64,000 nt of DNA from Planctomycetota bacterium (GCA_026004615.1 BPJM01000001.1:443482-507481); one strand, 5' to 3'; numbered from the stretch's first letter, positions 148 through 19,626 are shown. The notes: generated by a model not told the origin, from the letters alone. Numbers and translations are program-made.

Positions 148-2987
148 TCACCTCGAGCCCGCGCACGCGCAAGCGACACCGCCTGGCGGATGCGCTTGTG
201 GGCATCGGCGAGCTCGCTCGCCGCGTCGGGCCACCCGATCCCGGACCGCCCGCTGGATCGGATGTGCGGCGCCCCACTCGGCCGCCGTCGCGTGCCACTC
301 GCCCACGCTCGCAAGCGCTCGCTCGACCAGCTCGCGCTTTTCTTCCGCAGGGATATTGGCGTCTGGCCTGGCCTCGGCCAGCAGCCGGAGCGCGTCCTCG
401 GCTTCCAGCCATTCGGCGTCGGCGGGCCCGGCTCCCGCGAAGCCGACCACGAGCACCTCCTCCGACAAAAGAGGCCGCAGTTGGGGTTGTTCGACCAGGT
501 ACCGCACGCGGAGCAGCAGGATCGTCGTGAGCGCCTCCACGGCTCGGGTTCGCAGAGCACCACAGCGCGAGACGGTGGCGTTGCCGGGCCGGCTCAGCGC
601 TTCCTCGAAGAAGAACCGCGCCAGCGTGGCCACAAGGCGGTGATTGCGCCCCACATACTCGGCGCCCTCGGGTGTGGGCGAGTCGAAGCTGATGAGCCAC
701 CGTCCGCCCTTGGACGCAGGCAAGACCAGCCGGATGGCTTCGGGAAGCGTGGCTGTCGCCTCGGGAGTCACGGTCACCCGGAAAACGCCCTGGCGGCGGT
801 CCGGGGCCACCGCGAGGCCGATTCGCTGAGCCGCGGCGAGGACGAACTCGCGCACGGCGGCCGGGTCGCCGAGCACCGCGTCGGTCGCCTCGAGTTCGCG
901 CTGCACTTCCTCGGGCTTCAAGGCACGCTGGGCGAACCGCGTGCGGTTGATCCGCTCGCGTTCTGCATCCCGTTCCCACCGCTTGTGAAGGTCGGCCACC
1001 TGCGGGATCCCGAGGTCTAGGAGGAGCTGCCGCGGCTCGGCCCGGCGCCGCCCGCGAAGGAAGAGCGCTTCGAGCACCGCCTGGGTGACGCTTTCGCTTT
1101 CTTCAGGCACGGGCACATGCGTGCCCAGGGTGCGGTGGATCTCCCGCGCCTTGTCGAGCAGAACCTCGATCACCACGCCGTCCACGGGGTTGTCCCGCCC
1201 GAAAAAGCGGATCGCCTTGACGGTTCTGGCCGGCTGGCCGTAGCGGTCCACCCGGCCCTCGCGCTGCTCCAGGCGATTGGGGTTCCAGGGGAGGTCGTAG
1301 TGGACGACGGCGGTGAACTTCTCCTGGAGGTTGACGCCCTCGGAGAGGCAGTCGGTGGCCACGAGCACGCGGGGGCGGTCGGCGTCGATCTCGGCGATCT
1401 TGGCCTCGCGCTCGTCGTCGCCCATGCGGCCGGTGACACAGGCGACCTGCACCTGCTGGCCCAACCGGCTGCCGCAGATGCTCGGCGACGTACTCGGCGG
1501 TGGCGATGTACCGGCACCAGAGAATGGGATGGAAGCCTTCCTGCAGCAAGCGCTGCACGATCTCGATGGCGCGCTCGAGCTTGGTGTCTTCGCGTCGTCC
1601 CCAGGAGTCGCTCGGCCAGGCGCTGCGAGTTCTCGCAGCTTGCGGCGGTCGCCCTCAGGCGAGGGTATCTGACGCCGCTTCGACCGCAGGTGTAGGCGAC
1701 TCGTCCTCGGTGCGTTCCTCCGCCGACTCGAACACGTAGGGCCCGAACTCGGGCTCTTCCTCGGCTGCCAGCGACACCCCGGCCCCCTCGCGTCGTTTTT
1801 CCAGGGCCGCCACCGCCGCCGCCGGGCTCGACATCACGCAGCGCAGAAGCGCCAGCGCCCCCCAGTAGCGCACCCGCCGTTTGCGCTCTTCGAGGCCCTC
1901 GCCGGTCCGCACGATCTCCGAGCAAAACGCGTAGGTGCGCTCGAACAGCTCCCGGTACGGACCGGAGAGCTCGTAGGTTTCGTCCGCCGTTTCCCGCTTC
2001 GGGAAACAGGCAGCCGCCTCCCAGGTCTGTTCGATGTCGCGGCGGGTACGCTGGACGAAATGGCGAGCCAGCTCGATGCGCTGCGTCTCGCTCCAGGCTG
2101 CCCAGATCCAACTCGGCGAACTCCGGGCGCAGAAGCCCGAGGAGCGACCGAAAGGCATCCTCGATGCCGCTATGGGGCGTGGCGGTGAGCAGGATCAGAT
2201 GCCGATCCGGCTTCTTCGCCACCTCGCGCAAGAGCGCATGCCGCTCCTGCTGGCGCGGGCCCAGGGCCGCCGCGGCGCCGTGCACCTCGTCCGCGATCAC
2301 GAGTTCGGGACAGAACTGCAGAAACTGGTGGCGGTTGCGGTCGGTCTTCACGAAGTCGATGCTCGCCACCTGGACGGGGAAGTGCTCGTAGAGGCTCCGG
2401 CCGAGCGGGGTTTGCCGCTCGAGCTGCCCTACGGTTCCCGAGCGGATCACCACGGGCTCGAGGTTGAACTTCTCCGCGAGTTCCTTGGCCCACTGCTCGC
2501 AGAGGTACGGGGGGCAGAGCACGCAAAAGCGCTGGATCTCCCCGCGGTCGAGGAGTTCTCTGCGCGATGAGCAAGCGCCTCGATGGTCTTTCCCACCCCC
2601 ACGTCGTCGGCGATGAAGAGCCGCACCGGGTCGAGGCGCAGCGCCATGAGCAGCGGCACGAACTGGTAGACGCGCGGCCGGATGGAGATGCGCCCCAGGG
2701 AGCGAAACGGGGTCGCCCCCTCGCGGAGCGTAAGCCGCGCTGCCTGCCAGAGGAGATGCGCGCTCGCCGCGTCCGCCACGCCCTCCGCCGCCGGCAGGGG
2801 AAACGACGCCGGCGTGACGCGCTCGAAGGGAAGGTCGTAGCCGACGAGAGTCGCCAGGCCCCGGTGCACTTTGACGATGTCGTCGGTCGTCCCGGTGAGG
2901 GGCCGGAGCACGAAGATATCCTCGTTGATCCGCGGGCAGCAGCACCCACTCGCGATTCCGGCAGCGAACGATCGAGCCGGGAATCAT
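148..2987 (-). pseudogene. SNF2/DEAD-like helicase, readable only across at least five frame changes
   Basis: Start MIPGSIVRCRNREWVLLP at 2987 (frame of ORF 1170..4241). It continues in ORF 2447..2911 (RPLTGTTDD, Walker A DDVGVGKTIEA), then back in the 1170..4241 frame (CPPYLCEQWAKEL, DEVH, LLLTATPHSG). It then passes through ORF 1655..2158, ORF 1103..1558 (LLQEGFHPILWCRYIATAEY) and ORF 148..1464 (helicase motifs V/VI: LVATDCLSEGVNLQ, HYDLPWNPNRLEQREGRVDRYGQ). Confidence 0.8.
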
Positions 2988-3329
2988 GGAAACGGCTCCT
3001 TCGTGTCGTTCTCCAAGCGGGGCATATAGCGCCCCCCCACCGGTGCCGGAAGGAAGTCTGTCCCCCGACTGCCCTCGATGGTCGCTCAGAAAGGCGAGCA
3101 TCACCCCTCGCAACGCAGCGAGCGGTCGGCGAGCCCACCCACTGTCGACGGTGGCTGATCTGGGCCTGATGGATCTCCTTGTCCCGCACGCTACTCCGCC
3201 GGCATCTCCCGAGTCGGCAGGGCGACTTCGACGATGCGCGGAAAGGTTCGTCCATGCATCAGATCTTCGTTTGGCGTACGCACATCCTCCCTCGGCGACA
3301 AGCTCTGCAAGAGCCCTGCGAGCCCTCTT

Positions 3330-3650
3330 TGCAGACTTCGTCGGAGCGCCGAGCCGCACCAGCGGCACGTCCTCCAGCCACTCCTCGATCACGTCGTAGA
3401 CCCGGTCGGACCCCATCTGCTCCCGCATGACGTCCAGCTTCGAGAGAACCCTCTGCAGAACCGCGCCCTCGCGGGTGTTCTGGGCGACCAGGTTGTAGAC
3501 CCAGACCTCGCCGGCTTGACCGCAGCGGTGGATGCGCCCCATCCGCTGTTCGAGCCGGTAGCGTGCGCATCGTGCCGGAGGCGCACTCCGTAGCCCAGGT
3601 TGGCGTCCGAATTCCCTTTCGCTGGAGCTGTCGATCCCCGTGTTTCCTCG
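3330..3650 (-). pseudogene. Orphan fragment (motif VI region) of a second SNF2 helicase, paralogous to the intact helicase at 21379..24819
   Basis: The frame of ORF 1170..4241 reads YRLEQRMGRIHRCGQAGEVWVYNLVAQNTREGAVLQRVLSKLDVMREQ. This is colinear with MGRIHRYGQRKDCLIFNFVATNTIEGRVLQRLLEKLQEIRD of the intact helicase. The upstream part is out of frame (ORF 3389..3655). Boundaries are approximate. Confidence 0.55.
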
Positions 3651-3673
3651 ATCATCCGCGACCTCCGGGTTGA

Positions 3674-4081
3674 TCACGCCGCCACGCGCTCCAGCCGTTC
3701 CCGCTCGTGCGGCCCGACACAATAACCGGTGACGCCTGCCTGCCGCGAGGCTCCCGACTGCGGCGCAGGCAGGTAGGCCTGGCCGGCGCACTCGATGACC
3801 CGCTTCCTCACCTCGTAGCAGTAGCGGTCGAGCCGGAAAGCCTCGAGGCTCTCGGCGCACTTCTCGACGAGCGCGCCGGCATGGCCGGTCTTCTTGAGAT
3901 CCAGATAGAACTGCCGGTTGTGCGGGCCGGAAAAGATGAACTGGCCGCTCAGCATCTTGTGGATCTCGCACAGGACCGTTTTCACTTGGGTAACATCGGA
4001 AAGAAGGTCGCCAACCGGGTCTCCGCCCTGTCCTTGTTTCCGCGGCCGTCGTTCTTCGACGCTCCGCCGAAGTTCCGCCAT
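3674..4081 (-). CDS. Hypothetical protein, 135 aa
   Basis: Internal ATG (4081) of ORF 3674..4444: MAELRRSVEERRPRKQGQGGDPVGDLLSDVTQVKTVLCEIHKMLSGQFIFSGPHNRQFYLDLKK... The composition looks coding-like after residue ~25. It occupies the same position (leader, then small ORF, then helicase) as the small ORF upstream of the intact helicase. No family recognised. Confidence 0.4.
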   Translation of the reverse strand: MAELRRSVEERRPRKQGQGGDPVGDLLSDVTQVKTVLCEIHKMLSGQFIFSGPHNRQFYLDLKKTGHAGALVEKCAESLEAFRLDRYCYEVRKRVIECAGQAYLPAPQSGASRQAGVTGYCVGPHERERLERVAA

Positions 4082-4200
4082 CGAAACGATCGCAGTCGGG
4101 GAAGTCTGACCACGCTGCCGGCCCGCCAGCCCGGAGCCCCCCGCCCTCGCAGGCGTGCGGCACCCGATCCGCGCCCCCAGACCCGCCACAGCCCACTCCG
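4020..4200 (-). repeat. Copy A of a conserved ~180-200-nt leader/terminus sequence (copy B at 25560..25740)
   Basis: By-eye alignment with 25560-25740 gives shared blocks in the same order: gaaacgatcgc, tctgaccacgc, cggcccgc, agccccc, cctcgcagg, ccgatccgcgcc. Both copies sit immediately 5' (minus strand) of a small ORF that precedes SNF2 helicase sequence. Boundaries are approximate. Confidence 0.6.
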
Positions 4201-4479
4201 CTGGTCTGGGCCCGACGTCGAACCGAGCACGCGGCGGCCAACGCCCCGTGCTCGCCCTCACCGCAACGAGAGTCCGGCCGGGCGGGAGCCTCATGTCCCG
4301 TCGAGCGTTCAGGTTCGGCTTGTCTTCAACCCGAACCTCGAGACCTTTTTCGCGTCTCCTCGAAAGCCTTGCCTGACCCCGCGGAGCGCTGAGACCGCCG
4401 GACAAATCAGCGCTCCCACGCGGCGAGGGCGAGGGATACCGCAAGGAGCACCGTCGACTCCGGCTCGGCCGTCCCCTAC

Positions 4480-5820: not shown

Positions 5821-6011
5821 CTAGCCCCCCCGCGCGCGCGAGCAGCGCCAGCAGCTCCGCGGCGGCGGGCAGCGCGCCCAGCTGTTCGAGCGCCGGCTGC
5901 GCGCGCCGCCGCCAGTTGGGGCAGTCGGCGCCGGTGCCGGGGACGTTCTGCGGCCGCGTCTCCAGCCACAGGTCCTCCAGATTCAGCAGCACCCAGCGCG
6001 CCTCGCTCGCC
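5821..6011 (-). repeat. Left copy of island-flanking direct repeat = orphan duplicate of the last ~63 codons of malQ
   Basis: Nearly identical to 25807..25999. I count 2 substitutions and one 2-nt indel. ORF 5741..5992 translates LLNLEDLWLETRPQNVPGTGADCPNWRRRAQPALEQLGALPAAAELLALLARAGG, versus the malQ C-terminus ...LLNLEDLWLETRPQNVPGTGAECPNWRRRAQPALEQLGALPAAAELLALLARARGG. Confidence 0.9.
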
Positions 6012-6062
6012 GGGTTCCAGCGGCCCCTCGACCGTTACGGGTGCCCCCGCTCCGCCTGGATC

Positions 6063-8906
6063 TCAGCCGTCATCGCTGACCTCCAGGCAGCTCGAGATGC
6101 CCAGATCATCGAGGATCCGGCGAAGCTCGGCCGCCAGGTGCCCCGCAAGGTCGCGTTGGACCGTGACCGCGAACTCCACGTTGAGCTTCAGCTCCGAGCC
6201 CGTCCTTCGCAGCACCGGAACGAGTTTGGTCCCCAGGCGGTTCCAGACGTCGGGGGGAACGGCGCCCGACAGGCGAATGGTGCTCGTCTGGACGCCGGGG
6301 GCCGGCTCGAGCCCCGGCTCCGGTGCGGGGCAGGGCTCCGGTGCGGGGCAGGGCCCCGGTCTCGATAGGGGAGGCGGGGGTTCCGCTCCCCCTTCCGGAA
6401 CAGGCGCCGGAATGCCCGCCTCGAGCGCCTGCGCCCTGGCCCTGGTCAGCAAAAAGACGTCCGGCTCGAAGGCGACCTCGTCGTGGGGGACCGGCTCGCC
6501 GAACCAGATCCGCTCGTAGGTTCCGTCCGCCTTCTCGCCCGAGGCGAGGCCGAACTCGCCCCTTGCGACGAACTCGACGATCTTCTCCCGCAGGGTCTTC
6601 TCCGGGTCGAGGAGCCTCGTCAGCGAGCCGTTCAGGAAACTCTGGCGCAGGCTGGCGAGCGGCCACGCGCCCGACTCCTTCAGGGCAGGAGGCCAGTTCC
6701 TCTCGATGTAGCCCGCACCGACAGACTCGTTGAGCAGGGCTTCGGACTTGAGCGCGGCGATGACCCTGCCGCACAGGGTCTCGCCGCTCGAGGAGTGGCC
6801 GGCCCCGAGGTCGATGGTCTTGAGGCCGTCACCCTCAGCCTCGCTCCCTGTTCCCCCGGGGGAGGCTTGGGGTGAGGGCTCATAGATCACAGCGAACCGG
6901 TAGCCCGCCCACACCTCGTCCTTCGCCGCCTCCTCTGCGGCCGCGACCTTCGAGCGGAGGCCGGCGCGATCCGACCCGTCGAACTCACCTCCCAGCGTAC
7001 CCTCGTCCACTTCCCGGGCTACTCGCTTCCACGCGAGCCACAGCTCCACCTTCTCGCGCAGATCCCGCCCCGGCTTCTTGAGGCACCACACGAGCGATCC
7101 CGGGTACAGGCGCGGGGATCTGCCGCGCTGCCTGGTCCATTCCGCGATCTGGCTCCTCAGCGGTCCGCCGCCCGTCCACTCGGCCTCCGGTTCAGCGACG
7201 ACCAGCGTGAGCCTCGGGGTGTCCGGGACGTCGGCTCCGTCCCGGGGGAAAAGCGTCACGGGAATGCTCGCTCCCCGGCGGAACTCAACCTCGACGAGCT
7301 TGCGCATCGCAGGCTTGATCTCGGTCTCCTCGTCCAGCGACGCCCGCCGGTCGTTCACCACCTTCTTCATCGTGGGCTGGTGGCTGATCTTGAACCCGTC
7401 CGCGCCCACCTTCCGGATGAAGTAGGACCTGTCCTCGAGCGCGAACGCGGCGCTGTCCACCGAGGTCGTGTCCACCTGCGGCTCGCCGAGGGCGAAGCGC
7501 AGCTCCGGCAGGTGCGCCACCTTGTCGGTCTGGCCGCCCGAGGACTCGAAGAGGATCGCCGTCCCCACGCGGCGGTGGATATCGCGCAGCGGCCCTTTCG
7601 TATCGGCATCCAGGGCGCGGGCGTGCGAGGTTTGGCCTGCTATGTCTGCCTCGATCGCCGCGACGAGCCGGGACTCCCCGAGCTGACCCAAAATCGTGCT
7701 CCGGAACCCCAGATCGTGAAGCGGGGCGGAGCCGAGCGTGATGAGCGGCTCGCGCCGGGCGGTCGTGAATCCGTCCCGATATGCCCAGGCGATCCACTGC
7801 GCGAGCATCGCCAGGGTCCCGCGCGTCTGCTGGTACTGGGGCAGCGCCTGCCACTTTCTCTGGAAGACCGAGAGCGTGGCCGGGTGGAAGGGGTAACACG
7901 CCTCGAATCGGCTGCGGAGGTACTGGCGGGCCTTGGCCTCCGTCGCCACCGCGTCCACCGCGGTCCATTCCCGCGGCAGCTGGGCGCGCCGTTCGAAGCA
8001 CCAGTCGGCGAAGGCCTTGGCCACGTTCTTCCTGACCCGCTCGCTTCCCAGGTCCTCGAACAGCCGCCGCCGGACGACCTCGCTGATCTCCGTCTCGTCG
8101 TTGGCGATCAGGTCCCTGGCGACGCGGCGCACGACCTTGGTGATCTTCTCCTGCCACTGCAGGTCCCAGTCGGTCATCTCGACCTGGCTGCGCGGGAGGC
8201 TGATCACCGCCGCGCCGTGGGTCGTCCCGGTCGTGGCGACCGTCAGATTCTGGATGAAGGCATGGAAGGATTCCGCCATCCCGCGGTGCCGGTTGAGGAA
8301 GTTGAGCACCTCGTCGAACAGAAGCAGCACGGGGGCGTTGGCCGCCTGAAAGACGCGGGCGATGGACTCCGTTCCCGGAGGGATCGTCTTCGCCGCGGTC
8401 CCCAGCGCTTCGACCCCCGCGTCACCCGCGAGCTGGCGGGCGAGGTCGATCCACGGGGTCTCGCGGCCCTCCTGCGGGTCCCAGGCGTTGCCGACGAACA
8501 CGCCCACGCGCGCCTTGGGAACCGAGGAGAGGCCGGCCTCCCGGATCAGATCGGCGACCCCCGGGCACCCGTACGCCTTGTCGCCGCTCGTGCCGAGGTG
8601 GTAGAGGGCGGTGAGCGTGTGCGTCTTGCCGCCGCCGAACTGGGTGATCAGGGTCAGGACCGGGGCGGTGTTGTCGGTCCTGCCGGAGAGCCTGCGCAGC
8701 ACCATGCCCGCGTGTTCCCGAAGCGCGCGCGTCCAGCACGTGCGCGCAAAGAACTGCGCGGGATCCCGATAGTCCTCGGGGGCCGTTCCGGCCACCACCT
8801 GCTCGAGGGCGATGGCGAACTCGTCCGGGTTGAAGGACCGTCCCTCCCGGACTTCTCTGCGCGGGGTTGCGACTTTGTACCAAGGTTCCATGTCATTCCC
8901 TGCCAC
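6063..8906 (-). CDS. DUF499-family (COG1483) P-loop ATPase, 947 aa, intact
   Basis: ORF 6063..8906. The N-terminus reads PWYKVATPRREVREGRSFNPDEFAIALEQVVAGTAPEDYRDPAQFFARTCWTRALREH...LITQFGGGKTHTLTALYHLG, which is the signature opening of DUF499 proteins. No internal stops. It contains an 18-nt perfect tandem duplication near the 3' end (6318-6353, PCPAPE x2). Confidence 0.9.
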   Translation of the reverse strand: MAGNDMEPWYKVATPRREVREGRSFNPDEFAIALEQVVAGTAPEDYRDPAQFFARTCWTRALREHAGMVLRRLSGRTDNTAPVLTLITQFGGGKTHTLTALYHLGTSGDKAYGCPGVADLIREAGLSSVPKARVGVFVGNAWDPQEGRETPWIDLARQLAGDAGVEALGTAAKTIPPGTESIARVFQAANAPVLLLFDEVLNFLNRHRGMAESFHAFIQNLTVATTGTTHGAAVISLPRSQVEMTDWDLQWQEKITKVVRRVARDLIANDETEISEVVRRRLFEDLGSERVRKNVAKAFADWCFERRAQLPREWTAVDAVATEAKARQYLRSRFEACYPFHPATLSVFQRKWQALPQYQQTRGTLAMLAQWIAWAYRDGFTTARREPLITLGSAPLHDLGFRSTILGQLGESRLVAAIEADIAGQTSHARALDADTKGPLRDIHRRVGTAILFESSGGQTDKVAHLPELRFALGEPQVDTTSVDSAAFALEDRSYFIRKVGADGFKISHQPTMKKVVNDRRASLDEETEIKPAMRKLVEVEFRRGASIPVTLFPRDGADVPDTPRLTLVVAEPEAEWTGGGPLRSQIAEWTRQRGRSPRLYPGSLVWCLKKPGRDLREKVELWLAWKRVAREVDEGTLGGEFDGSDRAGLRSKVAAAEEAAKDEVWAGYRFAVIYEPSPQASPGGTGSEAEGDGLKTIDLGAGHSSSGETLCGRVIAALKSEALLNESVGAGYIERNWPPALKESGAWPLASLRQSFLNGSLTRLLDPEKTLREKIVEFVARGEFGLASGEKADGTYERIWFGEPVPHDEVAFEPDVFLLTRARAQALEAGIPAPVPEGGAEPPPPLSRPGPCPAPEPCPAPEPGLEPAPGVQTSTIRLSGAVPPDVWNRLGTKLVPVLRRTGSELKLNVEFAVTVQRDLAGHLAAELRRILDDLGISSCLEVSDDG

Positions 8907-10052
8907 CTGCCGGGGTCTGTCCGGTCAGGAGCGAAAAGTCCTTGGGCGTGAGCTCCTGCGTCGTCTGGACGAACCAACCCCACGAACGGGACGGATCCCT
9001 GCCCCGAAAGGCATCGAGCCGGCCCCGGAGCTTCTCGTCGATGGAGACCGGGCGATCGAGGTACATTTGGACCTGCTCGAGGGTGATCGTCCAGGGGTAG
9101 CTCTCCTTTTCCCGCACGGCGGATGCGGTCTATGCTCCGGGCCGCTCTTCACCCGGGCGTGCGCGACGACCCCCGTTCCGCTCGCGTAGAACGCGATCCA
9201 GTCCCCCGCCTGGATCCGGGTTCGGTGGGGGGTGCGGTCTCCAAAAGCGTAGACGCCCTCGGAAAGCAGCCTTTGGATCTTTTCGGCCGCCGAGGAATCC
9301 GCATCGCCGCTTACCGGAGTCAGCCAGCAGGATCCGCCGGTCCTGCGCTCCTGCTCGGTACCGGCCGGCATCGCCGGTTCGAGGGCCTGCCCCTGGGCTG
9401 TCGCCTGGGCAACGATCGTCGAAACGACGCGCACGAGCGGACTGATGCTCGGCTCCGGGGGTTTCAGGAACCGCAGGACATCCGCATGGGGGACATCGTA
9501 ATCCCTCATGAGCTCCGCCAGGGAAAGGAGTTCCTCCACATCGATGACGCGGAGCTGTTCCGTCCTCTTCTCGGCACGGATCGCGTTCTCGATCTGTCTG
9601 GTGTCCGAATCCCGGCGGCCGATGGCGTAGAGTCCGATGGCCTTGTCCCAGCTCGGGATCCGGCGCGCGGAGATCAGCTCGTCGACATATCCCACGAGCG
9701 TCTTCGTTGAAACCGCGTAGGTCTCCGTCGTCTTCACCTCCACGACCACGTGGAACTCGGACGGGGACGTCCACAGGCCGTCGAAGCCGACCTCCCCCCG
9801 GATCCCCCGGTACCGGCCGTACTCGACCTCGAATCCGAGGAGTTCGCCCAGGCGGTTCACGAGGTCCTGGAGGGCCTTGTTGTACTGCTCCTCCGAGGCC
9901 TGGAGGCACTCCTGGACGTAATCCCTCAGAAGGCCGACATCTCCGACCTGGCTTCGCAGGAACCGCCGAAAGCGCTGGCGAGGGGTGTCCTCGCCGGGAC
10001 AGTCATCCAGTTTTCCCACCAGGCTCAGCACCTCCTTGAGCTTCACGGCCAT
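8893..10052 (-). CDS. PD-(D/E)xK restriction-endonuclease-like N-domain fused to an EVE/PUA-like C-domain; one frameshift near 9118-9140
   Basis: ORF 8925..10052 shows GFDGLWTSPSEFHVVVEVKTTE (a D...E-x-K nuclease core) and then IQAGDWIAFYASGTGVVAHARVKSGPE. The reading continues in ORF 8893..9117 (REKESYPWTITLEQVQMYLDRPVSIDEKL...WGWFVQTTQELTPKDFSLL), which is EVE-like. The stop at 8893 overlaps the DUF499 start (8906) by 14 nt. Confidence 0.6.
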
Positions 10053-10109
10053 GTCAGGACCTCCTCCGGCGGGGCGGCACGCCGATACCAGCTTTCCATC
10101 ACGCTCCTC

Positions 10110-11060
10110 CTACGGTCTCTTCATGCGTGCGAACAGCTCGGCCGCGGATTTCTTCAGCCGGCCGAGGTTCGCGTATGCGACCGGCTCGAACCCCCTCTGG
10201 CACGAATACATGCGGTAGCGGATGCCGTCGGTCACGACCACGTCCCGGGGCGTACCGAGCGCTTCGAGGTACCCCTTCGCCTGCTCCAGCGCTCCTTCCA
10301 CGCCCGCTCCCAGGCGCTTCGCCTCGATCACCAGCTGGCAGTTCTCCGGCGTCCGTGGCAGGGCCCGGAACACGGCCACGTCGATGTACCGCCACTTGAC
10401 GGCGATGCGTTCCGGCGGCCAGCCCAGCGCCCGCAGGAACGGAACCACGAAGTGCGCGACCATCTCGTCCTCGCTCGGGTGCTCGCCGAACGCCTGCCGA
10501 TCCCCCACGCGCAGGACGAGGTCGTTCGCTTCCGCAACGAGGCCTCGGAGTGCGGCGGGCACGTCCTCGAGGGGCGGTTGCTCCGGCGGTAGATGCGGCA
10601 AGGCGGCCGTCTGCCAGTGCGTGGGAGGCGAATGCAGGAAGCGGTGGGTATAGTCGAGAACCTCTTCGCTCCAGACGCGCGACAGCCGCCCAGGATTGGC
10701 ACCGAAGACCGGCTTGCCGAACTCATGGGGTTCCGGCAACGGCTGCCAGCGCACGCGGCGCGCGTGCTGGAGGTCCCAGCCGTTCACGTCGTCGAACTGG
10801 TTCAGGTAGAGGTAGTCGCTGGCGACGATCCCGACCGCGCAGATCCTCGAGATCCCGGTCCGTAGCAGGAAGACGTCACCGACCTGGACCTCGCTGGCGA
10901 AGCGGCGGACGAAGCCGCCTTCGAACTCCTGGTCGTCCCGCTCCGCGTTCCAAGGGCCCGCGTCCCCCGGGCCGATCAGGCCGACACCGTACTTCAGGAA
11001 GACGCCGTCATAGGAGCGCACAGCCGGCCCGCCCGAGATCTGCCAAGTTGCGCGCGTCAC
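10110..11060 (-). CDS. Two-domain protein, 316 aa: N-terminal beta-rich putative sensor domain + C-terminal HsdR_N-like PD-(D/E)xK nuclease domain
   Basis: Part of ORF 10110..11270. The likely start is GTG at 11060, overlapping the upstream TGA (GTGA at 11057-11060). The C-terminus reads MVAHFVVPFLRALGWPPERIAVKWRYIDVAVFRAL...CQLVIEAKRLGAGVEGALEQAKGY, resembling the type I HsdR N-terminal nuclease domain (D...E-A-K). The N-terminus (WQISGGP...GVGLIGPGDAGPW...VGDVFLLRTGISRICAVGIV) resembles the small sensor modules fused to McrB/type IV enzymes. The N-domain assignment is tentative. Confidence 0.55.
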   Translation of the reverse strand: MTRATWQISGGPAVRSYDGVFLKYGVGLIGPGDAGPWNAERDDQEFEGGFVRRFASEVQVGDVFLLRTGISRICAVGIVASDYLYLNQFDDVNGWDLQHARRVRWQPLPEPHEFGKPVFGANPGRLSRVWSEEVLDYTHRFLHSPPTHWQTAALPHLPPEQPPLEDVPAALRGLVAEANDLVLRVGDRQAFGEHPSEDEMVAHFVVPFLRALGWPPERIAVKWRYIDVAVFRALPRTPENCQLVIEAKRLGAGVEGALEQAKGYLEALGTPRDVVVTDGIRYRMYSCQRGFEPVAYANLGRLKKSAAELFARMKRP

Positions 11061-11680
11061 TGTGTCGTCCGTCTTTGCGCGCCGAGTTGGCGCAGATGCG
11101 CGCGCAGGTCGTCGAGAAACGCCTTGAGCGATGTATCCTGCTTGCCTGCGCGGAACCAGTCCATCTTTTCGACGAGGTCGCGGGCGAACTCGATCCCGCC
11201 GAGGGTGAACGGGTGGCCAGCCATCCGCACAGCACTGGCGAGTAACTGCTTGTAGTGACCCCTTGTGCACTTCTTTTCACCGACCACGGGGCGGTGACCG
11301 ACCACATCGTTGAATGAATCCGGATCTGCGAGGTACCAGCGTTCCACGTGGGGATCCGGGCAGGCGGCAACCACTCTTCCCTGAAGTTCCTGCGTGGTCG
11401 CACTCGCGATCTCTTTTTTCTTGTCTGCGAACGTCGTACAGTTGCCGTCTATGGCTACGACCACGAGCTCCGGCGGCGCCTCCCCGAAGGCACCCCTCTG
11501 TATCAGCTTCTGGTACGTCCCGAACTCCGCGATGGCCCGGCCGTGTCCGCCTCGCGCGGAGCGAACGCGGAGTTTGACCTTCACCTGCTCCTCCTTCGCG
11601 ACCCGCTCCACAAGCGGCACCAAAAACTCTTCGTGCGCACGATCTTCCACAAACAGATCGATGAGGAGAACGTCACTCAT
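11057..11680 (-). CDS. DUF4276/TOPRIM-like small protein, 207 aa, partner of the upstream ATPase
   Basis: ORF 11057..11680: MSDVLLIDLFVEDRAHEEFLVPLVERV...PELVVVAIDGNC... It has an N-terminal acidic E motif plus a later D-x-N/D motif, as in OLD/TOPRIM-like DUF4276 proteins. The start overlaps the ATPase stop by 8 nt. The family call is from memory. Confidence 0.6.
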   Translation of the reverse strand: MSDVLLIDLFVEDRAHEEFLVPLVERVAKEEQVKVKLRVRSARGGHGRAIAEFGTYQKLIQRGAFGEAPPELVVVAIDGNCTTFADKKKEIASATTQELQGRVVAACPDPHVERWYLADPDSFNDVVGHRPVVGEKKCTRGHYKQLLASAVRMAGHPFTLGGIEFARDLVEKMDWFRAGKQDTSLKAFLDDLRAHLRQLGAQRRTTQ

Positions 11681-12908
11681 CCAGCAGCCCCCTCATGAGC
11701 ATGCTCTCGAAGAGGCCGTCCTCGGTGCCCGCCGTGAGGGCGGCGGCGATCTCCTGGTCCTCGACCACCGCACCGGTGACAGCGAACGGTTTGACGATCG
11801 TCTCCCCGCCCGCGCGGTGGACATTGAAGAGCCCGATATCCGCCGGCCTGGAACGGGCGTGCTTGAGCACCGCATCGCAAAAGAGCGGCGAGTGCGTCGT
11901 GACAACGACCTGGCGGTTCTGCTCCAGGGCCAGCGAGAGCAGAAGCTGGGCGATCAACTCGAGTCTGCGCGGGTGGACGCCGTTCTCGGGCTCCTCGAAG
12001 CCGACGAGGGAGCCGCCCCACGGGTTGACGGCGATGGCGCAGAGCGCCAAAACACGGAGCGTTCCCTCCGAAACGATGCGCGTGGAGTAGTCGACGCCGG
12101 CCTGCCGGATGAGGACATCGAGCGTGCCGCGCCGCTTGTCCAGATCGACGGCCAGCTCCTCCACGCTCGGGACGATCGATCGCAGGGTGCGAAACACCGC
12201 AGCAAAGCGCTTCGGCTGCTCGGCCCGAAGCCGATAGAGGAACGGCGCGATGTTCTCGCCGAGCACGCCGATATCGCGCACGTCGGATGGAGGCCGCTCC
12301 GCGCGCATCGCCACGCGTGGATCGAGGTAGTAGATACGCCACGCCGTCAGCTCCTGGCGCACGCGCTCCAACGCGCGGTACTCCACACCCCCGAAGCGGC
12401 TGTCCGACAGGACCGTGTGGTTCAGTCCTAAGGGCTCAGTACGGGGGTGTGCCGGCTTGCTTTTCCGGCGGATTCGCAATTCCCCATCGACCTGTTCGAT
12501 TTGGGGTCTGCCCTTCGGTTCGCCTTTCGCCCCAAGTTGGGCCAGGTACTCATCGGCCACCGTCAGTCTTCCCGATGCGGGTTCGATTCGAACGGCAAGC
12601 CGGTACCGGTACGAATCCCTCCCGTCATCGACATCTGCGCTCAGCTCGAAGCGAGCGTCGGAACAAGCCAGAAGTGCCGGAAGCCCCTGGGGAGGGAAGG
12701 AGAACGCCTCGATCTGCCGGCCACGAATCGGGTCGCTCAGCGCGTCCGCGAGCGTGCGCTCCGTGCCGAGCCGCGACAGGGCCAGGATCGCATCGAGGAG
12801 ATTGCTCTTCCCAGCGGCGTTGGGTCCGAAAAGCACCGCAAAGCGAGGGAGGTCCACGCTCAGGTTGGCCAGGGACTTGAAGCCCTTGACGGTCAGCTTC
12901 TTCAGCAT
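11673..12908 (-). CDS. ABC/SMC-fold ATPase (AAA_15/AAA_21 class), 411 aa
   Basis: Internal ATG at 12908 within ORF 11673..14321: MLKKLTVKGFKSLANLSVDLPRFAVLFGPNAAGKSNLLDA (Walker A), LVGFEEPENGVHP (Walker B/D-loop), VVVTTHSP (H-loop). GAGGAGG lies 4-10 nt upstream. Everything 5' of 12908 in that ORF is out-of-frame methyltransferase sequence. Confidence 0.85.
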   Translation of the reverse strand: MLKKLTVKGFKSLANLSVDLPRFAVLFGPNAAGKSNLLDAILALSRLGTERTLADALSDPIRGRQIEAFSFPPQGLPALLACSDARFELSADVDDGRDSYRYRLAVRIEPASGRLTVADEYLAQLGAKGEPKGRPQIEQVDGELRIRRKSKPAHPRTEPLGLNHTVLSDSRFGGVEYRALERVRQELTAWRIYYLDPRVAMRAERPPSDVRDIGVLGENIAPFLYRLRAEQPKRFAAVFRTLRSIVPSVEELAVDLDKRRGTLDVLIRQAGVDYSTRIVSEGTLRVLALCAIAVNPWGGSLVGFEEPENGVHPRRLELIAQLLLSLALEQNRQVVVTTHSPLFCDAVLKHARSRPADIGLFNVHRAGGETIVKPFAVTGAVVEDQEIAAALTAGTEDGLFESMLMRGLLDE

Positions 12909-12918
12909 CGAGACCTCC

Positions 12919-15900
12919 TCATCGTGGCACCGCCAGGAGCATCGCGTCGAGCAGGCGCTTCTCCTCGCTGCCCTTCGGGTAGAGGGCGGAAAGCGCGTTG
13001 GCCAGCCGCAGGAAGTCCGGCCCGCGCTCTGCTCGGCCTCGAGGAGCGCGCGCAGGGCATTCGCCTGCCCGCTGGCCTGCAGCAGCATGGCCGCGTGCAC
13101 GCGGTCGAGCGTCGTGCCGCCTCGCCGCAGTGGCCTCGCGGTCTTTTCAGTTCCACCTCCGAGGCGTCGATGAGCCCCTTGCGCCGCCGGCCCCGCGCCG
13201 CGGCCCTTCGGGGGCGCGTTCCGCTCCATCTCCGGGAAGAGCACCTGCTGGAGGTTCTTCTTCGGGTCCTCGGCGATCCAGTCCGCGCCGCCTCCGCGCC
13301 CTCGCCGCCGAAGAGTCTGCCTGGCGCGCTCGCGGACCGCCATCAGAGCGGACCACGCCCTTTTTCGTCTCGATGATGCGGCCTTCCCATCTGGGAAGGT
13401 CGATTCCCAGCGGCTGGGCGAAGCGGCGGACGACGTCGAAGACCAGAGTGTAGCCCCTGCCCTCGCTTTCGCCGAGCGGCTTCTCTTCGTCCTCGCTCCT
13501 CTTCGTCCTCGTCGGCTCGCCTCGCCGGCGTTCCTGCTCCGTGCCGCTGGCCGGTGGTCCTGCAGGGTCCAGAGGAACAGCGCGGTGAGCCGCGCGTCCT
13601 CCTCCAACGCCCCGGCCGCGCCGTTGCGGGCCTGCGCCTCGGCCGTGCCGAGCACCTGTTCCAGCGCTGTTCGGCCGACGACCTCCCAGACCTTCTCCAG
13701 GTACTCGGCCAGTGTGACCTCGCGCCCCTCGGCGGTCTCGACCTTGCGGTAGCGGCTGAAGATTTCGAGCGCCGGGCCGATGCAGGCGAAGACGAGGTCC
13801 GCGCCGCGGATGCCTTCGGCCTGCAGGCGCTCCATCCAGTCGCCGACGCGCCGGGGCAGTTCGCGCAGGACCTCCGCCCAGTCGCCCACCGGGGCATCTC
13901 GGGCCGCGGGCGGCAGACGAGGTGAACGCTGGTGGCGAGGGCGGCGGATTCGCGGGACCGCAAGCGGCCCGGTCGTTCCGTAGCGATCGGCCAGGAGCCG
14001 GTGATTGTCCAGCCGCCGCGGATCAGCCCGGAAAGGAGCGCCTCCCAGCCCTCCGTCGTCTTGTGGGCGAAGACGACGAGCCCACGCCGTCCTCCGCGCA
14101 GGACGCGGCGCCCTTCGGCGAAGGCCTTCGCCATTGTCTCCTCGAACCACGCCCGGTCCTTGGTGCGCCCGTCGTCCTTCTTGGTCTCGTCCTGTACGGC
14201 CTCGCGCTTCTTCGGCGTCGAGCGGGTTCTCCGGATCGAACGGGTCGCGCAGGAGCGGATGCTCCGGCAGCGCGCGCTTGAGCCAGACGAGGAAGAAGTC
14301 CGAGAGGTCGGCGTAGGGCACCGCGTCGTAGTAGGGCGGGTCGGTGAACCAGACGTGCGCCGTCTCGTCGGGGAGCGGGTGCTCGGTGGCGTCGGCGGGC
14401 TGGACCTGGCCGGAGCGCGACCGGGCCAGGCTTCACGACGCTCGCAGCCCAATCGACTGCACCTTCTAGCGTTCCGACGGAATCCGCCCAGAGTCAGCTT
14501 CGCGAAATCCCAGACGATTGGCAGCGCTTGCCGGCCAAAGTGTGCGCTCGAACTCGCCGCTCTGGCTCCACGAACACCGAGCTACCGTAGTCGCGCACTG
14601 CCGATCACGCAAGGCCATCGCCGCCCGCACGCGCCGTCGTCCGCTCCGGCCGCTCCCGCACCAGCCGCGCCAGCGTCACCAGCGCCACCTTCTGCCGCGC
14701 GGTGAAGAGGTCGCCCCACTGGAGCATGCCGTAGCGCTGCACGCGGAACGCCGCAGCGTCCGACCGCCGCCGCGGCAGTGGCTCATCCGGCACGGGACAC
14801 GGCCCCCGCTTGCCGCCGCGCTCCCACTCCTCGAGCATCTTCGCGAGCCGCGCCTGCGCCTTGCGGACCGCCTCGTAGTCGCGCTCGGTCGGCAGCCGGT
14901 AGTGCCGCCCCGCTCGCCGGGCCTGAGCGTCACCACCGCCAGCAGCCGCGCCCCGCCCGTGCGCCGCCCCCTCGTCGAAGACGACGTCCGCCCCGCCGCG
15001 CTGGGCCGCAAGCTGCGCGCGCACGCGCTCGGGCGGAAGCACAGCGCCGCAGCCAGGCACGTCGCCTTGGCGCGCGCTCACCGTGCCGCGGGAACCTCCG
15101 TCTCGCTCTTCGGCTCGAAGATCTCGAACGCAACCTCCGGCGGCTTTCCGCCGGGCGCTCCACGCGGTAGCGGAGCGCGCGCCTGCGGTTCGCCTTCTTG
15201 CACAGCCAGAACGAGCGCACGAGCGGAATCTCCGCGCCGCAGTTCGGCGACTCGCAGCGCACCGTCCGCGCCCAGAGGTAGGCGATGGGTGTCGCGCCGT
15301 CCGGGTCCTTCGGGTAGAGGTCGGCGAGCTCCTTCTCGGCCTGCTTTCTTGATCTCCGCCCCCACCCGGCGCAGCTCCTCGGCCAGCTCCGGCCCGTGGC
15401 GCGGGATGTCCTCGAGCATGACCTTGAGGATCAGGCAGGCGACCGGGTTGAGGTCGCTCGCGAACGCCTCGCAGCCCACCCGCAGCGCCTCCAGCGGGAT
15501 CGAGCCGCCCCCCGCGAAGGGGTCCACCACCAGCGGCGGCTCCTCCGGGTACGCCGCCTTCGACGAGCGCCCGGGCCACTTCGAGGTAGGTGCGGTTGGC
15601 CGCCAGATCCCAGTTCGCGAAAGTCCGCGATGAAGCGGAGCAGCGCCCGCCGCAGTCCTCGTCCGTCTGCCCGGGTGGCAGCCGCCCACCTGTCCGGCAG
15701 CAGCCGCCGCGCCTCCTCCTTGAATCGCCGCGGGCACAGCGGATCGCACGGATCCGGCCACAGAAGCGCCAGAGCACCGCCCGGCACGACGCCAGCGGCC
15801 GCCGCGCCCACCAGAGGTGCAGCGTCGACGGATGCCCGTGCCGGATCGACTTCTCCCGCGCCGCGTGCTTCGACACCTCGGCAATCGGAAAGTCCACCTC

Positions 15901-15930
15901 GGCCAGGCGCTTGCAGTTTTTGGCAATCAT
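12919..15930 (-). pseudogene. DUF1156 (COG1743) Zn-ribbon DNA methyltransferase, full length (~1004 codons) but readable only across many (I estimate 8 or more) frame changes
   Basis: Start [52 protein letters not shown] (ORF 14605..15930). Further blocks follow in different frames. They are [23 protein letters not shown] (ORF 15431..16012), [43 protein letters not shown], which is the SAM motif (ORF 15078..15926), and [22 protein letters not shown], the Zn ribbon (ORF 14930..15262). Next come VVFAHKTTEGWEALLSGLIRGGWTITGSWPIATE (ORF 13343..14452) and then blocks in ORF 11673..14321. The true end GPDFLRLANALSALYPKGSEEKRLLDAMLLAVPR-TGA is at 12919. Confidence 0.85.
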
Positions 15931-17123
15931 GCGCCTTCCCCTGCTGACGCATCACCCTCGGCCGGCGAGGCTTTATCCTCACGCGGTAACATTTCCTTCT
16001 CTCCCACTGCATTCCGGACTCGCTGAAGGCACAGTTTTGATCTACAATCGCTGCAGATCCGGCTCCAATGCGAGTCCAGGCTGTTGCGCCGCTCCGAAGG
16101 TGGCCTCAAGAAATTAACTGTGTTCGCAAACTTCTCGAAGGCGTCAATCTGGACATTGTCGTCATCCGTAAACTCGTAACGTCCCGCCTTTTTCAAAAGG
16201 CACTTGACGACAAGAGGGAATGCAATGCTGGCCAATGCCAAATGCTCAAGTGGGTTCCACACCATGGGCTGCGCCGTATTCAGCTTCCCATGTGCGAAAT
16301 CCCCCCGAATTCGATAAAACTCGCGCATCCATTCGTAACGGAGGAACTGCTTAGTATCCTGCCACCTTTGCGATCGCCGGGTTGCGTCACGAGCTAACAA
16401 AGGTTCGGTGGGGACCACTACCGCGGCGAATTTCGCGGCTACATCCTTTGCGTCGGGTTTCGCGCCCAGGATGTGCTCAAACGCGCTGCACAGCAGAACC
16501 CACTCCACCTGGTAACGAACGTTTTCGCTATCCGTGTTCGCCTGATTGAAGCATGTGATCGCGTTCTGCCACTTGGCCCAGGAGTTGTTGCTGGTCGCTC
16601 CTCGATGAGATATGAGTGCCTTCAGGAGGGTCTCGTCCAGCCTGACTTCCGGTATCCCATGGCAATGAACGGGAACGGTGATGGCGATGTGATCAATCGG
16701 CCATGTGCTTAACGTTTCACCCTCTCGACGACGAGTTGTGATGGCTGTGAAGTCGGCCCTGTCGAATTTCTGGATGTAGAGCGAGAAGCAGTCGCTATTG
16801 CAATAGGGACCGAGCTCATTGAAGTATTCGCGCCTGGCCAGCCCACAGAAACAAGCTATGGCCACGAGTTCACGGATTGTTTCCCGCTCCTCCTCGTTCA
16901 GATCGTCTATCACTGATTTACCGGCGTAGCGGGCGATGGCGGCACGGTCTACCGGTTTGGCCTGGATAGTCTTATAGGTTGCCAGAATCGTGTTGACGCG
17001 ACATTGTGCGGCCCCGTCGAGACCTTCGATGGGTTGGTGACGCTTAAAAGGCAGGATCTGTAGCTGGCCTACGTCGTAGGCCTTATCGATCCTGCACCAC
17101 GGCAAGAATGAAACCATCGACAT
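15927..17123 (-). CDS. HEPN-like (Rx4H) protein, 398 aa, possibly Apea-like HEPN; markedly lower GC than its surroundings
   Basis: ORF 15927..17123, uninterrupted. It contains [14 protein letters not shown] (an R-x4-H HEPN-type motif) in an alpha-helical-looking C-terminal half. A hand count of one 60-nt line gives ~52% GC, against ~70% or more for neighbours. Its TGA overlaps the DUF1156 ATG (ATGA at 15927-15930). Confidence 0.6.
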
Positions 17124-17126
17124 TGG

Positions 17127-17410
17127 CTACTTCGCCCTCTCCCAATCACCGCGAGTTCCGTACGTCGCACTCTCCTCACGAACCCCCATTGGTTTCGTCA
17201 GAGCATCCACCGACAGGCAGTAGTGGGCTACCTTCGTGACCTCGCGCCAGTCGAAGCGCGCAGGGTCCTTGATCGGTTCCTGGAGCTGCGCCTTGGTGGC
17301 GCCTGCCTGCGCCGCGCCCCGGGACGCGGCAGGGAGGCCGTTGGTGACCAACGCAGAGCGAGTAGCAGTCGTGTCGGTCTTGGGCCGCGCGGCGGTCCTT
17401 CGGGTGGGAC
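17127..17410 (-). pseudogene. Orphan duplicate of the helicase 3' end (DUF3883 tail), with indel/frameshift
   Basis: ORF 17127..17351 reads ...QLQEPIKDPARFDWREVTKVAHYCLSVDALTKPMGVREE, against the helicase end ...QLQEPIKDPARLEWHEVTKVAHYYLSVDAMTRPMQVREE. DNA similarity extends to about 17410 (PKDRRAAQDRHDCYSLCVG vs PNERRVAEDRRDCYWLYIV in another frame). Confidence 0.8.
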
Positions 17411-18062: not shown

Positions 18063-19340
18063 TCAGCCCTCGCCAAACAGATCCGGCCAGAGCTTTTGCA
18101 GGAGGCCTTCCAGGTCCGCAACCGGAACGATCTCCACCGATTCCCGGACCGCCGGTCCGCCTGCGTCGGGGCGCATGCTTGCCAGATCGGAGGCGCACTC
18201 GGCCGCAATATAGAGTCTCCTGATCTTCCCCTCCTGTGGCCCGGTCAAGAGCTTCGCCAAGGCAGCGAGATACATGCGGTCGGGCGGCCGGATCCGGCGC
18301 GTGAGATCTAGTTCCCCAACGAACAGCGCGCCTGCCGGAACCGGCCGCTGCAGGTAGGAGCTCAAGAGCGCCACCGCAATCGGCAGATCCAGCTCCTCTC
18401 GGTAGCGCTGCTGTCGGGGCACGTAGCAGTTGATCTCGTAGGAGAGATCCGTCAGGTCGACCTCCTTGATCGTGCTCAGAATGCTGAGCAGCTGCTTGAC
18501 CTTCTTGCCCGGCAAAAAGGGAGCGTTTAGTTCCGGGCGCGAACCATAACGCGGCAGCGTCACGGAAGCCTGGCCCTCGGCGAACTCTTCGCCGATTCCA
18601 CTGTAACCCAGGACGGCAGCGCTCTTCGCGGCCCGATGCGGCGATTCCACCAGGCGGCCGCGCTGGTCCATCATGAGGACGAGCGGATCCAGGACGGCCG
18701 GTCCGAACCGATTCTTGGGCACGAAGAAGGGCCGCAGACGAAAGGCCCGCCGGATGTACATGACGCAATCCACATTGTGCTCCAGGTCCTTCGGGCCGGC
18801 GATCTGGCCTTTCTTGGTGACGTGCCCGATCAGGATCGAAACCAATCCCTGTGCCTTGGCGTTTTCGCCGAATTCATAGAGCGCCCGGTACTTGCGGGAT
18901 GCGGTCGAGGCCAGCCCCCGGCCCTGCACCGAGTCGACGACGATCGCCTGAATGCCGTGGTAGGCCTCTCCTTCCGTGAGCACGCGCCGGGCGAGAAAAC
19001 GCGGCAGCGCGTCGACGTCCTCGATTGCGTCGTCGAGGAAGAAGTTCTCCAGAATGGACTTCGGAAGGCGCCCGCCGGCGTCGCCGTGAATGCGGATGAT
19101 GGCGCGCTTGAGGTCGGCCAGCCCCTGCTCGGTGGTGAGGTAAAGCGACCGGATTCCCTGCCCGGCAAAGTCGCCCAGCACCTGCATGGCGAGCGTCGTC
19201 TTCCCGATGCCCGGTTCGCCCGCGACAAGGTAGACCCCGCCCCGGATGAACCCGGGGCCGATGGCCTTGCCCAACCAGGGCAGGGTTGAAACGGGAATGC
19301 GCTCGGGCCCCTTGTCTGTAATGTCCTCGATCTTAGGCAT
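18063..19340 (-). CDS. RadA/Sms-like protein lacking the N-terminal zinc finger: RecA-fold ATPase + Lon-protease-like C-domain, 425 aa
   Basis: Internal ATG (19340) of ORF 18063..19412: MPKIEDITDKGPERIPVSTLPWLGKAIGPGFIRGGVYLVAGEPGIGKTTL (Walker A), AIVVDSV (Walker B) and FFVPKNRFGP (the RadA-specific KNRFG motif). The C-terminal DLPIAVALLSSYLQRPVPAGALFVGELDLTRRIRP is the RadA Lon-like P domain. Confidence 0.85.
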   Translation of the reverse strand: MPKIEDITDKGPERIPVSTLPWLGKAIGPGFIRGGVYLVAGEPGIGKTTLAMQVLGDFAGQGIRSLYLTTEQGLADLKRAIIRIHGDAGGRLPKSILENFFLDDAIEDVDALPRFLARRVLTEGEAYHGIQAIVVDSVQGRGLASTASRKYRALYEFGENAKAQGLVSILIGHVTKKGQIAGPKDLEHNVDCVMYIRRAFRLRPFFVPKNRFGPAVLDPLVLMMDQRGRLVESPHRAAKSAAVLGYSGIGEEFAEGQASVTLPRYGSRPELNAPFLPGKKVKQLLSILSTIKEVDLTDLSYEINCYVPRQQRYREELDLPIAVALLSSYLQRPVPAGALFVGELDLTRRIRPPDRMYLAALAKLLTGPQEGKIRRLYIAAECASDLASMRPDAGGPAVRESVEIVPVADLEGLLQKLWPDLFGEG

Positions 19341-19414
19341 GGTCGTCCTGCAGATACCGGCGGCAGTCTGCCTTCGGGTGCGGCTGCATCCGCATGTGGG
19401 GCGTCGGATCAAGC

Positions 19415-19626
19415 CGCGGGATCGCGGGGCGGTGCGACTCGCACAGGCCTGGCCAGAGGAGCGCCGGCACCGCCGCCCGGCACGGCGCCAGCGCCCGCCT
19501 GGCCCACCCCAGACGCAGCGTCCAGGGATGCCCGTGCCGGATCGACCTCTCCCGCGCCGCGTGCTCCGAGGCCTCGGCGGTCGGGAGGTCCACCTCGGCC
19601 AGCCGCTTGCACTCCTCGGGGATCAT
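19415..19626 (-). pseudogene. Orphan DUF1156 5' fragment (~68 codons)
   Basis: ATG at 19626 (ORF 19333..19710): [65 protein letters not shown]. This is colinear with the DUF1156 start at 15930. Similarity is lost near 19415, 75 nt before the RadA-like start. The ATG overlaps the upstream TGA (ATGA at 19623-19626). Confidence 0.85.

Follow-up and report, generated by a model that had tools for sequence, protein, structure and literature searches.

A conserved reader-nuclease gene and its passenger neighbour in a planctomycete Hma locus: candidate type IV-like enzymes with opposite domain orders

What are two adjacent genes, each joining a PUA-like reader domain to a PD-(D/E)xK nuclease, doing inside an operon built around a DNA methylase? 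The question is raised by a stretch of 64,000 nucleotides from a Planctomycetota bacterium (GCA_026004615.1, BPJM01000001.1:443482-507481), which we call the window and in which all positions are counted from the first letter. A first-pass annotation of the window had placed two consecutive fusions of a reader and a PD-(D/E)xK nuclease at 8893-10052 and 10110-11060, and on verification both genes lie at those coordinates, on the minus strand, and the motifs it quoted are present. The two genes, referred to here as A and B, stand between hmaB and hmaC in a tightly packed minus-strand operon with the components that define Hma, namely an SNF2 helicase-nuclease (HmaA), a DUF1156 methylase (HmaB, here not an intact open reading frame, ORF) and a DUF499 ATPase (HmaC). 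By its gene content this operon is an Hma system, which has also been described as a type-1 'BREX-related' system (PMC12839542). The features of the two genes are these:

8893-10052, minus strand: gene A, a PD-(D/E)xK nuclease followed by an EVE/YTH-like reader (three-frame translation, homologues and AlphaFold2 model)
9453-10052, minus strand: N-terminal helical bundle and PD-(D/E)xK core of A, approximately residues 1-200 (Foldseek and invariant residues)
8893-9335, minus strand: C-terminal EVE/YTH-like reader of A, approximately residues 240-386, spanning the frameshift (Foldseek and Pfam EVE)
9112-9124, minus strand: frameshift site of A, 1 nucleotide missing between '...ccg cat ccg cc' and 'gtg cgg gaa...', where the family consensus is PHPxVR
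10110-11060, minus strand: gene B, a PUA-like reader followed by a PD-(D/E)xK nuclease, 316 amino acids, Pfam DUF8426 (PF28530)
10671-11060, minus strand: N-terminal PUA-like (EVE/YTH/ASCH-like) domain of B, approximately residues 1-130 (Foldseek and invariant residues)
10113-10475, minus strand: C-terminal HSDR_N-type PD-(D/E)xK nuclease of B, approximately residues 196-316 (family Pfam matches, motifs and model topology)

Gene A has to be read in two frames. As assembled it is a 375-amino-acid ORF that begins at 10052 and reaches a stop at 8925 after an out-of-frame stretch; the motifs 'GFDGLW...VVVEVKT' and 'GDWIAFYASGTGVVAHARV' are present, and 'WGWFV' is found in a different frame. Past 'VKSGPEHRPHP' the homologous reading resumes in that other frame ('VREKESYPW...WGWFVQ...') and runs to a stop at 8893-8895. 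Exactly one frameshift is needed, as seen by tblastn and by frameshift-aware alignment against a homologue that is 70% identical (P0002), and the repaired protein of 386 amino acids aligns with 98% coverage and about 55% identity to homologues of 378-386 amino acids. The shift could be a mutation or an assembly error. The first-pass annotation had described this gene as a nuclease followed by an EVE/PUA-like domain, and the order and the folds hold; its single reading frame does not, since the missing nucleotide had been bridged without mention.

The domains of A are identified by structure and by conservation. There are 895 homologues at E<=1e-3, and the AlphaFold2 model, built with the family alignment, has a mean predicted local distance difference test score (pLDDT) of 83.6. 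When this model was compared with the PDB using Foldseek, its N-domain matched EndoMS/NucS (5gke, 2vld), N.BspD6I, the Cas4-family ACE1 and the Shedu nuclease, with E values from 2e-3 to 7e-3, and the candidate catalytic residues D91 (9780-9782), E105 (9738-9740) and K107 (9732-9734) are invariant in 120 sequences. The C-domain matched YTH domains (E 4e-5, target-normalised template modelling score 0.6-0.68) and also VcaM4I and the EVE proteins 1zce and 2gbs. Pfam EVE (PF01878) is detected at E<=0.01 in 45 of 120 family members, with a best E value of 1.5e-6, while the protein in the window scores 16.8 bits (E 0.007), below the gathering threshold of 23 bits. Neither NCBIfam nor PADLOC, with its HEC and PDC models included, contained a match to A, and its full-length profile found nothing relevant among PDB sequences.

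Gene B begins with a GTG that overlaps the stop of an upstream DUF4276 gene by 4 nucleotides. We place its true start at 11060 because homologues of 316-324 amino acids match it over their full length; a longer candidate, the 386-amino-acid ORF at 10110-11270, was rejected, being an out-of-frame overlap with the DUF4276 gene where homologues begin at the 11060 position. The homologues number 1647 at E<=1e-3, and both they and the protein in the window carry the precomputed assignment PF28530, or DUF8426, a family label without an assigned function and one that a literature search found in no searchable paper. The AlphaFold2 model, again built with the family alignment, has a mean pLDDT of 82.8. 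The 'beta-rich N-domain' of the first-pass annotation is present, and Foldseek adds that the fold itself is PUA-like: the top PDB match is the EVE-HNH enzyme VcaM4I (5e-4), followed by YTHDF2, PH1033, ZmASCH and the N-domain of McrB from T. gammatolerans, which reads N6-methyladenine (m6A). Invariant residues in this domain include W6, W37, Y83, D96, H99, R102 and W105, and the conserved aromatic side chains of W37, Y83, W95 and W105 may line the pocket of the reader. A weak and partial match to the PADLOC model PDC-S02 covers residues 47-107 (about 60 residues) at E 3e-4, improving to 2e-7 for members of deeper branches of the family; searching the Payne supplement for PDC-S02 or EVE produced nothing useful.

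The C-terminal half of B contains 'RYIDVAVF...QLVIEAKRLG' and was thought from the outset to be an HsdR_N-like core, a view supported by matches across the family, by topology and by invariant residues. At E<=0.01, Pfam HSDR_N (PF04313) is detected in 77 of 120 sequences close to B and in 15 of 40 from deep branches, the best E value (2.3e-6) coming from a deeper branch, and two deep-branch members carry PF04313 as a precomputed assignment. The protein in the window reaches 16.5 bits (E 0.008), below the gathering threshold of 25.1 bits. Its modelled C-domain has the topology alpha-beta-beta-beta-alpha-beta, and the catalytic candidates E197/E199, D227 (10380-10382), E246 (10323-10325), K248 (10317-10319) and Q260 are invariant both in 120 close sequences and in a more diverse set of 73. 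When the C-domain profile was searched against the PDB, the only match was HsdR 3H1T, aligned on the same motifs with a non-significant E value of 1.5. The full-length profile found nothing relevant among PDB sequences, no NCBIfam or HEC model matched B, and hhalign gave no useful information when B-family profiles were compared with residues 1-260 of EcoKI HsdR. For the pair as a whole, then, profile and structure methods detect PUA-like and nuclease folds (EVE, YTH, ASCH and HSDR_N) with conserved catalytic D/E/K residues, as had been anticipated.

We rejected A and B as paralogues: comparing the families with hhalign gave a probability of 1%, with an alignment only over the D...ExK strand. 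On profile comparison they are independent fusions with opposite domain order. This lack of homology had escaped the first-pass annotation, as had the different standing of the two genes, B being fixed and A a passenger, and the 15-20 breaks in hmaB that are described below.

That difference in standing emerges from their genomic distributions. Scanning B loci, with one genome taken per species, gave 80 loci, distributed over more than 15 bacterial phyla and the Bathyarchaeia; one of them (L036) belongs to the cultured Desulfoferrobacter suflitae DRH4. HmaC lies downstream of B in 77 of the 79 loci with enough sequence; in 66 of these it is the very next gene, and in 11 a cassette intervenes. 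Of 74 informative loci, 72 have HmaB upstream, and HmaA is further upstream, so that the gene order in this branch is hmaA-hmaB-B-hmaC, with B usually 10-20 nucleotides upstream of hmaC. Across 28 complete loci the pairwise identity of B varies with that of HmaA (correlation 0.74) and HmaC (0.70) and less with that of HmaB (0.39), values that are descriptive only, as pairs are not independent. Within its own clade, therefore, B has the conserved presence, conserved position and co-divergence with HmaA and HmaC of a core component, and its branch is a fourth gene that has become fixed in one clade of Hma systems. It is not a component of Hma in general, for which the definition requires three genes: no B-type gene is present in the Halomonas system that has been tested (PMC11232893), and one related locus with an HmaC 60% identical to that of the window (L006) is also without B.

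Among the core genes themselves, the identities of HmaA and HmaC correlate at 0.91 and HmaB is decoupled from both (0.47-0.49; the same 28 complete loci, among L011-L090). Between loci that share 70-90% identity in their other genes, HmaB often reaches only 45-50%. It thus seems that the methylase, the presumed determinant of specificity, is exchanged or follows an evolutionary course of its own.

Beyond this clade DUF8426 has a different character. A profile search of 1.84 billion representatives returned 935 clusters, nearly all of 310-375 amino acids and containing both domains, and none of the best 150 clusters listed was long enough to be a fusion with DUF499. A deeper branch shares 35% identity with B (hhalign probability 100%), and all five of the deep-branch members looked up, including those of Cupriavidus metallidurans and Janthinobacterium, are solitary. 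That these branches are solitary indicates that B descends from autonomous reader-nucleases. The C. metallidurans homologue (CP046333.1, locus L171, 10001-11092) has, at a distance of about 4 kb, a Tn7-like transposition module with TnsA-like, Mu-transposase-like and TniB components; its host is cultured and genetically tractable, and it is a convenient candidate for study of the family.

The A family is distributed in quite another way. Homologous DUF1156/DUF499 loci do carry the branch of B; the A family has Hma genes nearby in none of 80 metagenome loci. When individual members were looked up, three of four were solitary or within an unrelated defence island. The closest homologue of A, at 70% identity, is nevertheless arranged as hmaB-A-hmaC, without B, at the same L006 locus. 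A is thus an autonomous gene that occasionally occupies the gap between hmaB and hmaC, and in the window it is an embedded passenger. No recombination breakpoint is visible in HmaC of the kind that would be left had A arrived together with an L006-like hmaC 5' end. Viral contigs provided two weak contexts for A and none for B, which indicates that neither is a phage gene.

In proposing a function for A and B we begin from what is established, which is their folds, their conserved catalytic residues and their genomic distributions. Each combines a PUA-superfamily reader and a PD-(D/E)xK nuclease in one chain, in opposite orders, and from this likeness we infer a modification-dependent, type IV-like action, which is the reading towards which we lean, if without great assurance. 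The reader pocket of A or B would flip out and inspect a base and, where that base carried a modification missing from host DNA, the attached nuclease would cut nearby. The core of Hma would, like a restriction-modification system, target unmethylated DNA, and A and B would constitute a second arm against phages that escape through DNA modification. Experiments have shown such a role for enzymes of the GmrSD/BrxU type that are embedded in BREX and Hma (10.1101/2024.01.29.577857). The fusion of reader and nuclease is, as the first-pass annotation had stated, the published architecture of many modification-dependent restriction enzymes, and the dependence of PUA-nuclease fusions on modification is experimental (PMC6765204, PMC7897488). 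The A family, almost always, and the deep branches of DUF8426 occur without a methylase partner, just as type IV enzymes do. B might in addition be coupled, physically or by regulation, to the DUF499 ATPase, as suggested by its fixed position next to hmaC.

Several observations weigh against this proposal. The nuclease fold of B depends on sub-threshold Pfam matches, motifs and topology, and the Foldseek matches listed for B are all to its reader domain; the assignment is weaker than that of A. PUA, YTH and EVE domains can bind RNA as well as DNA. The branch to which B belongs is never found without an N6-adenine methylase; this is not typical of type IV enzymes that act independently, and it is in keeping with a function linked to the mark that the system itself makes. 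Finally, with A frameshifted and hmaB broken, present-day activity of the locus in the window is doubtful. This last point concerns the state of the island as a whole, the other features of which are as follows:

6063-8891, minus strand: HmaC, DUF499 AAA+ ATPase, intact and free of frameshifts (PADLOC HmaC 1.3e-91, Pfam DUF499, NCBIfam DUF499_antiphage)
11057-12908, minus strand: embedded ABC/OLD-type ATPase (12908 to 11673) and DUF4276 protein (11680 to 11057), resembling the PADLOC candidate HEC-01
12919-15930, minus strand: HmaB, DUF1156 N6-adenine methylase, no single ORF (tblastn pieces in three frames)
21379-24819, minus strand: HmaA, SNF2 helicase with a C-terminal NOV_C PD-(D/E)xK nuclease, intact and free of frameshifts, the first gene of the Hma system
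5825-6022 and 25813-26010, unstranded: two copies of a 198-nucleotide direct repeat (repeat family D3, 96% identity) bracketing the Hma island of about 19.8 kb

It is possible, though we would put it as somewhat improbable, that the locus is a decaying relic in this genome, A and the methylase being pseudogenes and the two nucleases having no current joint function. Threading hmaB on the HmaB proteins of two other loci (L033 and L030) requires 15-20 frameshifts, and A requires one, whereas frameshift-aware alignment requires none in hmaA, hmaC or B. We considered and rejected a uniform sequencing error as the source of all the frameshifts, since these three genes are intact and so are the housekeeping ORFs outside the island, which match their own codon-phase segments. 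The error rate is therefore not uniform, and this would suit decay, as would the fragmentation of a second SNF2 helicase at 148-4241. Once corrected, however, hmaB encodes about 990 amino acids that are 72% identical to intact homologues without a single in-frame stop, the intact neighbours being 71-82% identical, and indels that are not accompanied by extra substitutions make a local failure of assembly or polishing, affecting a gene that is repeated or varies between strains, no less plausible than real decay, and speak against long neutral decay. The intactness of B, hmaA and hmaC points the same way. The Hma locus in the window may thus be inactive or locally misassembled.

The helicase at 148-4241 lies outside the repeat-bounded island, is split over several frames and has patches 32-54% identical to HmaA; it may be a remnant of another defence system. 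HmaA itself is identified by PADLOC (HmaA 1.5e-179) and Pfam (SNF2-rel_dom, Helicase_C and NOV_C) and is 87% identical to its counterpart at another locus (L001). The ATG of hmaC is 1 nucleotide past the stop of A. The island has a GC content of 59-72%, mostly 65-72%, against approximately 70-80% in its flanks, so that within a window that is GC-rich overall the region from 6 to 25 kb is somewhat lower. The 198-nucleotide repeat is a duplicate of the 3' end region of a malQ-like gene (25807-28185), and for this reason the island looks like an insertion at the end of that gene; no integrase was seen within it.

Besides gene A, the cargo of the island comprises two HEC-01-like pairs of ABC ATPase and DUF4276 genes (the pair listed above scoring 1.5e-56 for PADLOC HEC-01A and 5e-4 for HEC-01B, with Pfam DUF4276), a RadA/KaiC-like ATPase and an unannotated ORF. 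The ATPase (18063-19412, 449 amino acids) is RadA/Sms- and KaiC-like with a ChlI/Lon-like C-terminal part and a weak match to PADLOC mad8. The unannotated ORF (15927-17123, 398 amino acids) lies in a stretch of low GC (about 59%) and has no match in Pfam, NCBIfam or PADLOC. The 5' end of hmaB is duplicated within the island (15777-15932 and 19473-19628, 84% identity), as is the 3' end of hmaA (17155-17302 and 21395-21542, 80% identity), and these duplications mean that embedded cassettes are flanked by remnants of hma gene ends. A comparable remnant ORF, in which a DUF1156 N-terminus is fused to NOV_C, is found at L006 (48-611). This arrangement suggests that cassettes move between Hma loci through recombination in the termini of hma genes. 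Far from the island, an extended and imperfect tandem array, CCGCCGGTGCTG-like and with a period that alternates between 9 and 12 nucleotides, occupies 61795-62240 (and also 61210-61281) inside a minus-strand ORF at 60621-62489, which probably encodes a Gly/Ser/Thr-rich repeat protein.

In an explanation of a different kind, B reads the mark of its own system. Its YTH/EVE-like pocket would sense N6-methylation at the target adenines of HmaB and so license or block cutting by B or by HmaA, making B a part of self/non-self discrimination and not an add-on type IV arm. Besides the unfailing company of an N6-adenine methylase, and a place beside hmaC, this would account for m6A readers (YTHDF2 and the McrB N-domain of T. 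gammatolerans) being among the top fold matches, although Foldseek alignments at 10-14% identity cannot separate a YTH pocket from those of EVE or ASCH. The conservation of B while the specificity-bearing HmaB is swapped or diverges independently would fit a base reader that is indifferent to sequence. Reader modules of the TUDOR, ASCH/PUA and RAMA types are found repeatedly among DUF499 systems (PMC12839542), the archaeal versions of which are accompanied by EVE proteins that stand alone (PMC7641849). Yet the deeper branches of DUF8426 are solitary and have no partner methylase, so the ancestral activity needs no cognate mark, and related Hma loci do without B, whether at L006, where A occupies that slot, or in the Halomonas system tested (PMC11232893). 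Moreover, a protein that joined a nuclease to a domain reading the host's mark would be toxic to its own cell unless the mark were inhibitory. We regard this explanation as unlikely, and as less likely than the type IV-like one. Less likely still is its fuller form, in which DUF8426 would be the missing methyl-mark reader of the BREX-related system, a captured type IV enzyme repurposed as a self/non-self sensor that checks the m6A written by DUF1156 and couples this check to the nuclease it carries as well as to the DUF499 ATPase.

It is quite improbable, lastly, that A, B or both serve as backup or abortive effectors, with a trigger that comes from the DUF499 ATPase or from anti-restriction proteins of phages and a PUA-like domain that perhaps binds RNA or another ligand: about half of type-1 BREX-related DUF499 ATPases do have an N-terminal HEPN RNase (PMC12839542), B is a separate gene in the equivalent position, directly upstream of an hmaC without HEPN, and PUA, ASCH, EVE and YTH domains include RNA binders (PMC7641849, PMC11090510), but the existence of solitary members in each family suggests proteins that sense by themselves, HSDR_N- and NucS-type PD-(D/E)xK domains are DNA nucleases in characterised relatives, and neither toxicity nor a trigger is in evidence.

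What the two genes mean depends on which of these accounts is right. Should B read its own system's mark, a small and tractable protein would give a direct experimental handle on the step at which BREX-like systems, the DUF499/DUF1156 (Hma) group included, discriminate marked self DNA from foreign DNA. Should B be a type IV arm only, it is one more example of layered defence, and A and B are two uncharacterised candidate modification-dependent nucleases, possibly useful as reagents. The window taken alone is mostly ordinary: the system is known, so are the kinds of gene embedded in it, and one of those genes is frameshifted. What is new is the recognition of B (DUF8426) as a fourth gene, conserved but uncharacterised, in a widespread clade of Hma systems, and of A as the representative of an uncharacterised family of solitary nuclease-EVE proteins.

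The first-pass annotation had thought it unusual to find modification-dependent nucleases alongside a methylase, a view that finds no support. The presence of reader-nuclease genes within methylase-based Hma defence is already documented: approximately 63-67% of Hma loci carry nested genes, among them Septu, PARIS-like ABC ATPase pairs and GmrSD-like type IV enzymes, and several of these have been shown to defend alone (10.1101/2024.01.29.577857; PMC11232893). The embedded GmrSD-like HEC-05/BrxU and HEC-06 resemble A and B in being extra defence genes nested between hma genes. HEC cassettes are, like A, found mostly outside Hma, whereas the branch of B is found essentially only inside Hma and in a fixed position.

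In design, A and B are closest to the PUA-nuclease type IV enzymes, such as the EVE-HNH enzymes VcaM4I and TspA15I, the SRA-HNH enzymes and YenY4I (PUA-DUF3427-PD-(D/E)xK), with which they have in common a PUA-like base-flipping reader joined to a nuclease (PMC6765204, PMC7897488). Those enzymes are solitary single genes, the A and B families each have solitary members, and VcaM4I is both the top structural match of B and among the matches of A. There are also clear differences. The nuclease is not the HNH domain of VcaM4I-type enzymes but a PD-(D/E)xK domain, NucS-like in A and HSDR_N-like in B; the reader of A is at the C-terminus, unlike that of the characterised enzymes; and neither protein has detectable sequence similarity to any of them. 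Moreover, the branch of B, unlike those enzymes, is locked into the Hma operon.

The recruitment of readers to this system has precedents. EVE proteins were reported in 2020 next to COG1743-DUF499-SWI2/SNF2-nuclease operons in archaea and were predicted to discriminate modified foreign DNA (PMC7641849), and in 2026 the embedded PD-(D/E)xK nucleases of BREX-related systems were catalogued together with TUDOR and DUF3780-ASCH/PUA reader modules (PMC12839542). A B-type gene with a constant hmaB-B-hmaC placement does not feature in the main text of either paper. The archaeal stand-alone EVE proteins, the reader modules of BREX-related systems and the genes described here are alike in that a PUA-type reader has been recruited to the same three-gene system; the readers in the window, unlike the stand-alone EVE proteins of the archaeal COG1743-DUF499 operons, are each fused to a nuclease of their own.

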